DNA from: an uncultured Clostridium sp.
GTDB taxonomy: Bacteria; Bacillota; Clostridia; TANB77; CAG-508
DNA length: 64,000 nt
Direction: 5' to 3'
NCBI GenBank assembly: GCA_900553945.1
Contig: USFR01000004.1
Location: forward strand, 60,161-124,160
Both the position numbers and the translations under genes were made by a program. Below the pieces are notes generated by a model. That model was not told where the DNA came from and searched no databases. It saw only the letters and a list, made by a program, of their open reading frames with translations. Positions 17,118 to 60,539 of this stretch are shown piece by piece; the first letter of the stretch is position 1; each line of letters starts with the position of its first letter.

Positions 17118-17243
17118 AGAATAATATAGATAAAATTGTTGTATTTTAAGGTTAGTTTAACTTAACATGATATAATGATTTTATCTATATTTTTTTGTAT
17201 ATAAAATAACAATATATTTAATTCCAAAAAATATTATATTTAA

Positions 17244-17335
17244 TTTTTTCGTTCCTTGCTAAAAGATTTTACTGCTGACTAAACTTTGTTTAGTCAGCTA
17301 GGTAAAAACTTTCAAACTGCGCGTCACTCAAAAAT
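17244..17335. repeat. short member of the intergenic repeat family (termini shared with the 24316 and 60241 copies)
   Basis: Begins TTTTTTCGTTCCTTGCT and ends CTGCGCGTCACTCAAAAATT. The internal hairpin is gctgactaaactttgtttagtcagc. Confidence 0.35.
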
Positions 17336-17461
17336 TAAATATAATATTTTACTTGTATATAATAATAGAATTTTTCAATTTTTTCTATTGCAAATATAGT
17401 CTATTATTGGTATTATTATGTAGTAAAGAAGCAAATTTAGTCAAATTATGAGGAGATAAAA

Positions 17462-21508: not shown

Positions 21509-21588
21509 TAAATTATGATATAGACAGGGCGTTTTTAATAGCGCCCTAATTTCTATAATAAAAAGTTCTTTGAGATTCTGATTATAGA

Positions 21589-21660
21589 AATTAATAATGC
21601 ACAGAAATTTGCTTTGCAAATTTTGCACACGAACAAAAACGTGGTCTTAAAAATGTTATA
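21589..21660 (+). repeat. conserved ~80-nt intergenic element, copy A (hairpin CACG-aacaaaaa-CGTG)
   Basis: ~80% identical to 57211-57285. The extended -10 TGTTATAAT lies immediately downstream. Confidence 0.4.
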
Positions 21661-21725: not shown

Positions 21726-22940
21726 ATGAATGAAGAAGACAAGAAGTATAATGTAAGAGTTAAAGTTATCGTGGCTGTAATGATTACGTTTATAATTACA
21801 TTATGTGGGACAGTAGTAGTGTATGATAAATACTTATCATACAAGGGATTAATTATAAAAGATTATGAATCATCTGGTGATATAGCTAATGATATTAATC
21901 TTTTAAAAACAGTGATTGAGAAAAAGTACAAAGGTGAAATTGATGATAGCAAATTAGAGCAAGCTGCATTAAAAGGATATATAGAAGGATTAGGAGACGA
22001 GTATACAGAGTTTTTAACACAAGATGAATGGGATGATTTAGATTCTTCTTTATCTGATTTTGTGGGAATTGGCGTGTATATGTCTCAATTAAAAAATTCA
22101 AGTGATGCTGTAATTATTGGAGTAATTGATGATGATACACCTGCAGGAAAGGCTGGAATTCAAGCTGGAGATATAATAAAAGAAGTTGATGGTGAAGATG
22201 TTTCCGGAAAAGGAACGGAATATGTTTCTTCAAAAGTTAAAGGACCTGAAGGAACTAAAGTTAGTATGAAAGTTTTACGTGGCGATCAAGAAATTGAATT
22301 TACAATGACACGTGAACAAGTTAAGGTTTATAAAATTAAACATGAGATGTTAGAAAATAATATTGGATATATTGATTTTGATTCATTCACAGATACAAGT
22401 GCTGATGAATTTAAAGAAGCATATAATGATTTAAAAAATAATGGTGCCACTTCTTTAATAGTTGATTTAAGAAATAATACAGGTGGATATGTAAAATCTG
22501 CTTTAGAGATTGCTGATTTATTTGTTGATTCAGGAAAAACATTATTAATAACAGAAGATAAGGCTGGAAATAGAACTGTTCAAAAATCATCAAATGGAAA
22601 AACAATTGATATGCTAGTTGTTGTATTAGTTAATGAATACACAGCTAGTGCATCTGAAATTTTAACTGGAATTTTTAAAGACTATGGAATTGCTAAAGTT
22701 GTAGGAACTAAAACATATGGAAAAGGTGTTATTCAAGAGGTATATCCTGATGTATTAGGTACTGAGATTGGTGGTGCTTTAAAAGTTACTGTTTCAGAAT
22801 ATTTTACTCCAAATGAAAATAAAATTAACAAAATTGGAATAATTCCTGATGTAGAAATTGAATTAAATGAAGATGATTCAGTGAAGATAACTAAAGAGAA
22901 TGATGCTCAGTTACAAAAGGCAATTGAATTATTAAAATAA
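21726..22940 (+). CDS. ctpA: C-terminal processing peptidase (S41, PDZ domain)
   Basis: PDZ region (GDIIKEVDG) plus S41 domain. Follows the ftsEX-M23 cluster. Confidence 0.8.
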   Translation: MNEEDKKYNVRVKVIVAVMITFIITLCGTVVVYDKYLSYKGLIIKDYESSGDIANDINLLKTVIEKKYKGEIDDSKLEQAALKGYIEGLGDEYTEFLTQDEWDDLDSSLSDFVGIGVYMSQLKNSSDAVIIGVIDDDTPAGKAGIQAGDIIKEVDGEDVSGKGTEYVSSKVKGPEGTKVSMKVLRGDQEIEFTMTREQVKVYKIKHEMLENNIGYIDFDSFTDTSADEFKEAYNDLKNNGATSLIVDLRNNTGGYVKSALEIADLFVDSGKTLLITEDKAGNRTVQKSSNGKTIDMLVVVLVNEYTASASEILTGIFKDYGIAKVVGTKTYGKGVIQEVYPDVLGTEIGGALKVTVSEYFTPNENKINKIGIIPDVEIELNEDDSVKITKENDAQLQKAIELLK

Positions 22941-24238: not shown

Positions 24239-24315
24239 TTTTAAATTTTGTGTGACCTTTATTACGATGAGTAATAGAGGTCTTTTTATTGTATTAACTT
24301 CAAAAAGTCATATTA

Positions 24316-24482
24316 TTTTTTTTCGCACCTTGCTGTCGCATTCCTCGGTTTTTTGAAAATAAAAAATGTCAATTTTGATGTTATCTACATCACATTGACA
24401 TTTTCTAATTTTCAAACCGGGTAGAATGCTTCAATCGAGCTCACTACGTTTGCTTGGTCCCTGCGCGGTGATTCAAAAAATT
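24316..24482. repeat. intergenic repeat element, long copy
   Basis: Shares ~130 nt of flanks with 60241-60392 (CTTGCTGTCGCATTC...GGGTAGAATGCTTCAATCGAGCTC...GGTCCCTGCGCGGTGATTCAAAAA). The central hairpin has a different sequence. Confidence 0.5.
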
Positions 24483-24573
24483 AATATGATTTTTTGAAGT
24501 TAGTAGCAATAAGAAATAATGTTTGATTATGAATGGATTATATGATAAAATTTCTTTGTAATTTTTTAGTAGA

Positions 24574-55373: not shown

Positions 55374-55430
55374 GATTACAGGTAAAATATGAGTGCGGTT
55401 AAAATTAGCGCTGGGAAGAATTGGATTTTT

Positions 55431-56630
55431 ATGGAGAGAAAGTTTTTACATATTGATGTTAATAATGCTTTTTTGTCTTGGACTGCGGTTGATAGGTTGA
55501 AGAAGGGCGATAGGGTTGATTTGAGAACGATTCCAGCGGTTATTGGTGGTGATGAGGCTAAGCGTCATGGGATTGTTGTTGCTAAGAGTAATGTTGCTAA
55601 AAAGTTTGGCATTCAAACTGCTGAGCCTTTGTACATGGCGAGGAGAAAGTGTCCAAGTATAATTGTTATTCCAGGTGATTTTGATCTTTATAGAAGTTGT
55701 TCAAATAAACTATATAAGCTTTTTTTAGAGTATACGGAGAAGGTGGAAAGGTTTTCAATTGATGAGTGTTTTTTAGATTTGACTGAATATTTGAAACCTG
55801 GTGTGGATTTGATTAAGCTTGGTATCGAGATTAAAGAACGTGTAAAAAAAGAGTTTGGATTTACTGTTAATGTTGGTGTTTCTGATGATAAGATTTTGGC
55901 TAAGATTGCTTCTGATTTTGAGAAGCCTGATAAGATTCATACGTTATTTAAGTCGGAGATTAAGGATAAATTGTGGAGATTGCCCGTTTCTGAGATGTTT
56001 TTAGTCGGTAAGAAATCAATTCCTAAGTTGAATAGAATGGGGATAAGGACTGTTGGAGATTTGGCTAATACTGATAAAGCTGTTTTAATAAAAGAGTTTG
56101 GAAAGTATGGATATACTATTTGGAAATATGCAAATGGGGAGAGTGGCGAGGAGGTAAATTATTTACCTGAAAAGCCTAAAGGTATTGGAAATAGTATAAC
56201 TTTGCCATATGATGTTGCTTCTTTAGATGAGCTTGAGGTTACGTTGGTTGAATTGGTTGAGAAGGTTTCTTATAGATTAAGAAAAGAAAATATGTATGCG
56301 ACTGTTGTGAATGTTCAGCTTAAAAATAATAATTTTAAAAGTTATTCTCATCAGAAGAAGTTAATGGGGAGAACTGATTCGACGAGTGAGATTTTGAGTG
56401 TTGCGAAAGAGCTTTTGAAGGAGTTGTTTATTGGTGAGCCAATTAGGTTAATTGGTGTTAGGGCTGATGGTTTGGTTGAAAAAGAGGAGATGCAACTTTC
56501 AATTTTTGATATGAAGGAAGATTCTAAGAATAAAAAATTGGATGATACTATGGATAAGTTGAAGGATAAGTTCGGTTATAATATTCTTACTAGAGCTACG
56601 GAATTGAAGGGGAATATGAAGTCGGAATGA
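55431..56630 (+). CDS. Y-family DNA polymerase (DinB/Pol IV-like)
   Basis: HIDVNNAFLSW active-site region (D..F). Fingers/palm/little-finger length. The ATG at 55389 lies only ~9 nt after the -10, so the ATG at 55431 (MERKF) is preferred. Confidence 0.75.
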   Translation: MERKFLHIDVNNAFLSWTAVDRLKKGDRVDLRTIPAVIGGDEAKRHGIVVAKSNVAKKFGIQTAEPLYMARRKCPSIIVIPGDFDLYRSCSNKLYKLFLEYTEKVERFSIDECFLDLTEYLKPGVDLIKLGIEIKERVKKEFGFTVNVGVSDDKILAKIASDFEKPDKIHTLFKSEIKDKLWRLPVSEMFLVGKKSIPKLNRMGIRTVGDLANTDKAVLIKEFGKYGYTIWKYANGESGEEVNYLPEKPKGIGNSITLPYDVASLDELEVTLVELVEKVSYRLRKENMYATVVNVQLKNNNFKSYSHQKKLMGRTDSTSEILSVAKELLKELFIGEPIRLIGVRADGLVEKEEMQLSIFDMKEDSKNKKLDDTMDKLKDKFGYNILTRATELKGNMKSE

Positions 56631-56850
56631 TATAGAATCATAGAATTAAAGAGTGATATGAAATCTGAATAATTTAGAATCATAGAATTAAAGAGCAATA
56701 TGAAATCTGAATAATTTAGAATTATAGAATTAAAGAAAATATGAATGTGAATATTCTAAATCTGCAGAGTTAAAAGGTAATATAAAATATAATGATTTAT
56801 AGTTACAGAACTAGAAGGGTAACATAAAACCTGAATAATCATATAATATA
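56596..56850 (+). repeat. tandem degenerate duplications (~42-bp unit, ~5 copies) of the 3' end of the polymerase gene
   Basis: GAATTGAAGGGGAATATGAAGTCGGAATGA (gene end) is followed by GAATCATAGAATTAAAGAGTGATATGAAATCTGAATAA x2, then decayed copies. Confidence 0.7.
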
Positions 56851-57113: not shown

Positions 57114-57210
57114 TAAATGAATATGGGGCTATGTATGGGTTGCGTTATGCAGATTCGTGCATGGCTTTTTTATATAATATGAAACTTTTTTGAACATCCT
57201 ATTATATAAA

Positions 57211-57285
57211 ACAACAATGCACAGATATTTGATTTGCAAATTTTGCGCGCGAACAAATACGCGGACTTAAAAAAGTAAAACAAGT
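57211..57285 (+). repeat. conserved ~80-nt intergenic element, copy B (hairpin CGCG-aacaaata-CGCG)
   Basis: Aligns with 21589-21660. The stem carries paired A->G / T->C substitutions. Confidence 0.4.
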
Positions 57286-60179: not shown

Positions 60180-60240
60180 TGTTTCAAAAATATAATTATA
60201 TATTATTAGAAAAGATTAAAGAAAAAGTACATATGAAAAT

Positions 60241-60392
60241 TTTTTCACATCTTGCTGTCGCATTCTTCGAATCTTGAAAATAAGGTTATCTTTGGAGAAA
60301 AATCCTTAGGATAACCTTATTTTCAAATCGGGTAGAATGCTTCAATCGAACTCGCTTCGCTCGTTTGGTCCCTGCGCGATGATTCAAAAATT
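60241..60392. repeat. intergenic repeat element, long copy (between convergent genes)
   Basis: Same flanks as 24316-24482. The central perfect hairpin is aaaataaggttatc...gataaccttatttt. Confidence 0.5.
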
Positions 60393-60539
60393 TTATATGT
60401 ACTTTTTCTTTTTTCTTTTGCAATAGTTATATAAAAAAGAAAGTATTGCTGAAATACACTTAAAAAAGTTTATTTTAGTAATACTTTCTTTTTTTGAACA
60501 AATAAAAATTATCTGCTCAAACTATGGCAATGTTTTGCG

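Follow-up and report, generated by a model that had tools for sequence, protein, structure and literature searches.

Three intergenic sequences in the window, by which we mean the whole 64,000-nt stretch of clostridial DNA that was analysed, are probably copies of lineage-specific, non-autonomous and hairpin-forming interspersed repeats of a MITE- or REPIN-like kind, most of them fixed in place and eroding. They belong to a new lineage-restricted family of bacterial interspersed palindromic repeats with two sub-families (A and B) that have asymmetric ends in common, and they most likely represent decaying miniature mobile DNA rather than a new RNA gene. Repeats of this sort are an ordinary kind of genome feature, and their modest interest lies in a contrast in covariation between paralogous and orthologous copies, in the lack of target duplication, and in the activity that mobilised them.

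The original prediction had placed three related copies in the window, and on reading the sequence all of them are present at those sites. The positions it gave are right but too narrow, as an additional inverted repeat of ~17-21 bp, with a sequence that differs among the copies, surrounds each of them (Table 1); the complete units of copy 1, copy 2 and the short copy measure about 208, 194 and 123 nt, respectively. The two long copies do share the blocks quoted for them (CTTGCTGTCGCATTC; TTGAAAAT...ATTTTCAA; GGGTAGAATGCTTCAATCGARCTC; TTGGTCCCTGCGCGRTGATTCAAAAA), and their 3' halves form a 91-nt direct repeat of 85% identity (24405-24495 and 60316-60406). The short copy, originally delimited at 17244-17335, indeed keeps the ends only. 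The end motif CTGCGCGNNNNTCAAAAA matches at all three copies; with up to two mismatches allowed, the window has 3 occurrences where 0.14 would be expected, and none of 100 shuffles reached 3. Exact matches to a further motif, TTTTTTCNNNNCTTGCT, are confined in the window to the three copies, and nhmmer with profiles of families A and B detected no fourth copy in the window. The central segments of the long copies are, as had been proposed, unrelated in sequence and each capable of forming a hairpin, and the two pairings put forward for the flanks, GCATTC with GAATGC and TTGAAAAT with ATTTTCAA, are both present in the minimum-free-energy folds. Compared with dinucleotide shuffles, the single-strand folds reach z = -12.2 for copy 1, -11.8 for copy 2 and -9.3 for the short copy. 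The longest ORF within a copy encodes 10 amino acids.

Table 1. Coordinates of the repeat copies in the window and of their constituent parts.
Feature	Position	Strand	Remarks
Family A copy 1, complete unit	24295..24502	+	Fold pairs 24295 with 24502; -78.8 kcal/mol; nhmmer envelope 24296-24502; orthologous copies in L047, L058, L059, L060, L063
Copy 1, outer-stem 5' arm	24295..24313	+	TAACTTCAAAAAGTCATAT; pairs with 24484-24502; helix 1 of the family structure
Copy 1, outer-stem 3' arm	24484..24502	+	
Copy 1, left-end module	24310..24336	+	ATAT-T-run-C..CCTTGCT; common to A and B (alignments A2, A3)
Copy 1, variable apical hairpin	24353..24416	+	'Long' type, TGTCAATTT..ATTGACA; nested in TTGAAAAT/ATTTTCAA
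Copy 1, 3' side hairpin of family A	24434..24458	+	AUCGARC..GYUUGGU; conserved U.G and G.U pairs
Copy 1, right-end module	24459..24487	+	CTGCGCG..A.TCAAAAA-TTA-ATAT; common to A and B
Family A copy 2, complete unit	60218..60411	+	-74.0 kcal/mol; enclosing inverted repeat 60218-60234/60395-60411; ortholog in L049
Copy 2, variable apical hairpin	60274..60326	+	Type found only in copy 2 and L049
Family B copy (short form), complete unit	17228..17350	+	-40.2 kcal/mol; enclosing inverted repeat 17228-~17250/~17330-17350

A genome-wide check of copy number, which had been recommended as a means of challenging the repeat family, left it standing, with dozens of further copies per genome in two related MAGs. 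When the 18-mer GGTAGAATGCTTCAATCG was scanned against GTDB (one genome per species) it matched 57 stretches, about 24 of them in USQZ01 (uncultured Clostridium sp. UMGS1994, UMGS1994 being in use as a genus name within Firmicutes_A) and 29 in CAKPEG01 (a Hadza gut MAG); the other 5 fall in coding regions of unrelated taxa and are due to chance. Family A therefore numbers at least 24 and at least 29 copies in the two related MAGs and occurs nowhere else in the one-genome-per-species scan. With the window copies as queries, nhmmer detected 57 family-A matches at E <= 1e-9 in ~0.5 Mb of sampled loci (given L numbers here) and, in the same ~0.5 Mb, 28 family-B matches including the window's own, which often lie a few hundred bases from an A copy. 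Many of the matches are at the ends of contigs, as one would expect of a repeat on which assemblies break, and the family accounts for breaks of this kind in the clade's MAGs. It also provides a strain-typing marker, as a copy may be present in one strain and absent from another whose flanks are 99% identical. No similar sequence was found by blastn in plasmid and phage collections, and three pattern scans of viral contigs gave zero matches or chance ones in G+C-rich coding DNA.

Family A units are about 160-210 bp long and family B units about 120-125 bp. As judged from alignments A2 (42 family-A copies) and A3 (family B), the two have ~25-35 nt at each end in common, and their interiors are unrelated. 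The left module (ATAT, T-run, C..CCTTGCT) is not the mirror image of the right module (CTGCGCG..A.TCAAAAA..ATAT), an asymmetry retained by both families and also by a divergent copy in a relative of 85% amino-acid identity (L062/L071), where the architecture is kept and most stems have a new sequence yet still pair. The A2 consensus reads AAAGAAAAATACATAT-TAATTTTTTCACACCTTGCTG(T/G)CGCATTC...TTGAAAAT[variable tip]ATTTTCAAAtCGGGTAGAATGCTTCAATCGAACTCACTTCGTTCGTTTGGTCCCTGCGCGGTGATTCAAAAATTTA-ATATGTATTTTTCTTT. Its fold comprises an outer stem of 23 bp with a conserved A5/T5 tract (helix 1); a short inner stem that joins CACC-UUGC to GCGC-GGUG and includes a conserved U/C mismatch; a long arm with the GCATTC/GAATGC stem and a hypervariable tip, of which at least five discrete types occur and which L019 lacks; and a 3' side hairpin with two invariant wobble pairs (columns 163-169 pair with 193-199), in which A-U covaries to G-C at 168:194 and 183:190. 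In the terminal helix 1, 94% of cells are paired, so that terminal inverted repeats are present. About 40% of the copies have one and the same outer stem, GAAAAATACATAT, from which variants differ at 2-4 positions only, and the variants GTCATAT/ATATGAC, TTCATAT/ATATGAA and AACATAT/ATATGTT are each present at several loci unrelated to one another, from which it follows that the outer stem is passed on together with the element. In one family-A copy (L040:4876-5063) the usual asymmetric left end, TTTTTTCACACC, is replaced by TTTTGAATTATC, which is an 11/12 complement of that copy's own right end, the pattern expected of template switching within a quasi-palindrome.

Structural covariation, the absence of which the original prediction had named as grounds for abandoning it, is strong across copies. 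In alignment A2, 96.3% of cells form standard pairs versus 88.9% in shuffles, and two-sided changes affect 153 cells, compared with 35 +/- 5 in shuffles and 38 at most when the 3' partners are slid; 26 of the 58 pairs show a change on both sides. Compensatory change is seen in 15 of the 23 outer-stem pairs of family A and in 21 of 41 pairs of family B. The picture is a different one depending on which copies are compared. Among paralogs within CAKPEG01, compensated changes in the outer stem exceed one-sided ones (1141 versus 700), whereas ten orthologous pairs between genomes have 2 compensated versus 28 one-sided changes, 19 of which break a pair and 9 of which leave a wobble. Between orthologs the outer stem (81-100% identity) evolves faster than the core (92-100%), and core identity between paralogs is 83-87%. 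The intermediates in helix 1 are G.U/U.G (~21) and A.C/C.A (~19), and neither strand's wobbles are favoured. Orientation relative to tandem flanking genes is likewise unbiased, with 13 sense and 9 antisense copies in family A and 8 and 7 in family B. Taken together, the contrast between paralogs and orthologs, the equal wobbles and the lack of orientation bias argue against a strand-specific RNA that is kept at each locus.

The simplest reading of these observations is that pairing is needed for the propagation of a copy and that decay follows insertion. The ortholog/paralog contrast can also come from slow compensation in place, and the conservation of the core, or the invariant wobbles of the 3' side hairpin, could reflect a host-level or strand-specific constraint. 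If pairing does serve propagation, the compensated paralogs and uncompensated orthologs make a small, clean case of structure that is selected at the level of the mobile element and not at that of its host. The covariation most likely stems from the spread of DNA and not from RNA function, and sequences of this kind should be masked in screens for structured RNAs.

The gene context given in the original prediction (FtsE-like, CapA-like, convergent) holds for all three copies. The short copy is flanked by an ADP-ribosylglycohydrolase/Macro gene and by the gene for an FtsE-like ABC ATPase, upstream of the latter; copy 1 lies between a gene for a small membrane protein and a PGA_cap (CapA-like) gene, again upstream of the latter; copy 2 lies between convergent genes. 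The structured sRNA that had been suggested fared less well, given the lack of an Rfam match, the unbiased orientation and the recent changes between orthologs that break pairs. At gathering scores Rfam finds six tRNAs only in the whole window, and a permissive search (E <= 10) of two of the copies returned generic miRNA-hairpin noise only, far below gathering scores. A leader role finds no support either: copy 1 is preceded by a canonical terminator (24254-24282) and followed by the promoter-like site of the next gene (24523-24551), which puts it outside any obvious transcript. A search for promoters within the copies yielded weak consensus matches only, at the level of shuffles. One such shuffle-level match is an outward-facing promoter-like site at the left end of copy 1 (GCGACA, 16 nt, AATAAT; minus strand, 24339-24312), which recurs on the same strand in the family-A consensus as GCGACA, 17 nt, TAATAT.

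An alternative, which we regard as possible although unlikely, is that the repeats are a functional RNA-level module, a mobile bidirectional terminator or a hairpin that stabilises 3'-UTRs, comparable to SPRITE, ERIC or bcr1, with a structure that would be maintained through its use by host genes. The native terminators of these genomes are palindromes in which a stem stands between an A-run and a T-run, and the elements imitate this layout: on both strands each unit closes with the same succession of A-run, stem and T-run, the conserved A5 and T5 runs flanking covarying positions. It is thus plausible that copies have a bidirectional terminator or 3'-hairpin effect, and a bidirectional role would account for both the unbiased orientation and the equal G.U and A.C intermediates. 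The location of the copies fits as well, since they lie mainly downstream of genes, many of them beginning 7-60 nt past a stop codon, and are over-represented between convergent genes and scarce between divergent ones: an element is present in 12 convergent intergenic regions and absent from 22, with corresponding figures of 28 and 210 for tandem and 2 and 32 for divergent regions (odds ratio for convergent enrichment 4.4, p = 6e-4, the counts including orthologous duplicates between genomes). However, the base of the stem, next to the T-run, consists entirely of A-T pairs, and a terminator scan does not call the copies as terminators. Copy 1 follows a separate canonical terminator and precedes the next promoter-like site, and in a crude replacement test another terminator-like hairpin was about equally frequent in regions with the element (19/52) and without it (61/143; p = 0.5). 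Selection by the host also sits poorly with the recent changes in place, which mostly break pairs or leave wobbles, with an outer stem that changes faster than the core between orthologs, and with the loss of copies in close strains with no sign of replacement. On the reading that we prefer, of miniature mobile DNA in decay, a copy that happens to be transcribed may, judging from its sequence, weakly terminate transcription in both directions, or serve as a 3'-end hairpin, as a by-product.

The borders of the copies bear on how they arrived. Target-site duplications, which the original prediction had proposed to look for, were sought over all boundary offsets and none was found. No direct repeat of at least 3 bp occurs at any fixed boundary pair, the best case being 18% of copies versus 10% of mismatched controls, in a scan to which a palindromic duplication (ATAT, AAAATTTT) is indistinguishable from the inverted repeat. 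Losses of copies, or of parts of them, are more readily seen. The family-B copy of the window is missing from L060, where 132 nt are gone and the flanks are 98.8-99.8% identical to the window; the junction there has an AATAT direct repeat, and the 4 transitions in the adjacent 12 nt suggest an older allele exchange, such that the two alleles may be older than their flanks imply. A solo 5' arm is found in L005 where L004 has a full B copy, a solo right end lies beside copy 1 in L047 and L063, and L008 and L045 contain copies in tandem and with internal deletions. None of these loci captures an insertion, every difference in presence or absence being equally or better explained by deletion, and no clean empty site was found for copy 1, its place in relatives without it being taken by an unrelated intergenic region. 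At the site orthologous to copy 2, L071/L062 retain just the bare outer stem, closed by a loop of 1 nt and devoid of the core, AGAAAGTACATATAAA[T]TTTATATGTACTTTTT, and in L066 this stem is missing as well. A divergent 'family C' copy in L071/L062 was considered as the ortholog of copy 2 and rejected, since it lies ~50 nt downstream of the real remnant and is a copy in its own right.

The bare stem in L071/L062 invites a second alternative, in which the mobile unit is the core only, from T-run to A-run, with the apices of palindromic, A/T-flanked terminators that were already in place as its sites of insertion. The outer stem would then be target DNA and its compensation perfect without any selection. 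We consider both parts of this proposal improbable. Apart from the exactly coreless stem at the copy-2 site, it can draw on the similar form of the native terminators and on the missing target duplication. It is contradicted by the homology of the outer stems, of which the prevalent version and its variants recur at unrelated loci, and by the fixed distance of the A-run from the invariant ATAT. Among the 138 hairpins listed from ~0.6 Mb, the one in L071/L062 is the sole coreless outer stem, and a search for perfect ATAT-centred palindromes found no empty ones. Its existence can be explained otherwise, since the junction of A-run and T-run, AAAATTTT, is palindromic and thus flanks the core as a direct repeat; slippage between the two repeats would remove exactly the core and leave the same bare hairpin. 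That AT-rich intergenic hairpins and terminators resemble each other by chance and form no family at all, as a 28% G+C genome with its many A/T palindromes might lead one to suspect, can be dismissed with near certainty, being already refuted by the excess of the end motif, by the ~130 nt of matches including G+C-rich blocks, by the covariation, and by a census of more than 50 copies in related genomes and none in other taxa.

With the outer stem counted as part of a unit that moves as a whole, the observations suggest the following course of events. A single trans-acting enzyme that recognises the end modules would have copied both A and B, and copying would have required a paired outer stem. 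Such a requirement would in turn suggest a folded, single-stranded intermediate of the IS200/IS605, RAYT or REPIN type, and an intermediate of this kind fits the absence of target-site duplications. Once inserted, copies would be largely neutral and would erode by point changes, and probably also by slippage deletions between the short direct repeats of A/T runs that the palindrome creates.

As for the enzyme itself, no transposase-like multi-copy ORF family was found in ~0.45 Mb of loci, and the ORF families that do recur in the sampled loci encode M23 peptidases, ABC ATPases and giant proteins that are probably surface-located. No third element type with both end modules is present in the sampled loci, and a search of ~0.8 Mb of loci turned up no cognate autonomous IS bounded by these ends. 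In an exploratory tblastn search with an IS200 TnpA sequence as query, the same ~0.8 Mb gave no match. The giant ORFs lie beside family-A copies in both MAGs (L016:583-4821, L006:65-5494, L050:3-4850, L029:221-7999); they are paralogous, extend to ~2,600 amino acids, have ~30-35% mutual identity and probably encode surface proteins.

The original prediction had offered a MITE- or REP-like element as one identity for the repeats. That they are interspersed repeats is supported by copy number, by presence and absence among strains, by solo ends and by internal deletions, but membership of the MITEs in the strict sense is not. Units of 120-210 bp, below the limit of ~400 bp, which are non-coding, multi-copy and bounded by terminal inverted repeats, agree with the definition; the direct target-site duplication that should flank each copy is missing. 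The closest likeness among hairpin MITEs is with bcr1 of the Bacillus cereus group, ERIC/IRU, Correia/NEMIS and RUP, which are likewise non-coding, intergenic, multi-copy sequences of 100-200 bp with terminal inverted repeats, a long stem-loop fold and size variants that arise by internal insertion or deletion. Compensatory base changes have been reported for bcr1 (Delihas 2011, PMC3184786), as they are found here, but bcr1 has 5-bp direct repeats, unlike the present repeats, in which no target-site duplication was detected. The present repeats also differ from the hairpin MITEs in having no cognate IS among the loci and in the unlike subterminal modules at their two ends, which are common to two families.

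REPINs, which are mobilised by RAYT (Bertels and Rainey 2011, PMC3116915), provide the other obvious comparison. They consist of a long hairpin with conserved ends and a variable spacer, and show compensatory changes and no duplication (PMC3116915). The present repeats have all of these, a symmetric long hairpin, conserved ends, a variable spacer and compensatory changes. With REPINs and with the TIR families linked to TIRYT tyrosine transposases (Di Nocera et al. 2013, PMC3733652) they have in common the lack of target duplication and a position mostly downstream of genes, and a single-stranded intermediate has been proposed for those systems as it is here. REPs are defined as G+C-rich palindromes of 20-40 nt with a terminal GTAG or CGTC tag (PMC3733652), whereas the arms of the present repeats are A/T-rich, and their units are not made of 20-40 nt G+C-rich REPs and have no terminal GTAG or CGTC. 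GTAG was considered as a REP tag and rejected, as it occurs only internally, within GGGTAGAATGC. Nor was a RAYT or IS200-like gene found in the ~0.8 Mb of loci, with the IS200 TnpA as query. The hosts differ too: GTAG REPs have been reported from Proteobacteria, Cyanobacteria, Chloroflexi and the PVC group, in a text that makes no mention of Firmicutes (PMC3733652), and the present host is a member of the Clostridia with 28% G+C. Lastly, an interspersed Firmicute repeat of ~100 bp with a terminator-like fold and a position downstream of genes is alike in these respects, but it has no sequence similarity to the present repeats, whose hairpin is branched and much longer and has a base made up of A-T pairs alone. 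An integron attC site was rejected as an identity, since the copies are dispersed near housekeeping genes in both orientations and no cassette array is present.

A bolder interpretation, to which we give only a small share of our confidence, sees in the repeats the footprint of hairpin-dependent, duplication-free transposition in low-G+C gut Clostridia, or else a bidirectional terminator that spreads itself. In the transposition version, one enzyme acting in trans might read two different end modules and be either an unrecognised HUH/RAYT-like protein or one of a new kind; if true, the repeats would be a Firmicute counterpart of the REPIN/RAYT system, and discovery of the enzyme would extend REPIN-like biology to the low-G+C Firmicutes.

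The window and the related loci contain several further repeats. A third small repeat, (T/G)TGTCAAAAAGAACGTCCC(C)NTGACA(A/C), forms a hairpin of ~30 nt and was found 8 times (L047:3263, L063:1743, L006:5775, L009:791 and 971, L029:184, L038:531, L051:6735), usually less than 100 nt from a family-A copy and never in the window; in L047 and L063 it belongs to a ~75-nt insertion just 3' of copy 1 that is absent from the window. An intergenic pair at 21562-21656 and 57182-57276 (95 nt, 80% identity, hairpin GCACAGAAATTTGC..GCAAATTTTGC) lies upstream of the genes at 21726 and 57442; flanks in L053 match both members, and Rfam gave no match above noise for the pair. Three tandem 42-nt units (GAATTAAAGAG..ATAGAATTAAAGA, 85% identity) occupy 56601-56736, at the 3' end of the ORF at 55389-56630 and immediately past it. 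What looks like a type I-B CRISPR locus has its cas genes at 39351-47225, including Cas8b-like (CXXC_CXXC), Cas3 and Cas1, upstream of an array at 47704-48195 with 8 regular 30-nt repeats (GTATTAATTTAAATATATTAGAATGTAAAT) and a period of 65-67; two more degenerate repeat copies lie near 48543 and 50770, 377 nt and ~2.6 kb downstream. Just past the array, a 99-nt direct repeat of 86% identity (49824-49922 and 52056-52154) ends in a terminator-like hairpin (AAAGGTCAATTGC..CAGTTGATCTTT), in a region that also contains a gene of the choloylglycine hydrolase family (51003-51977).
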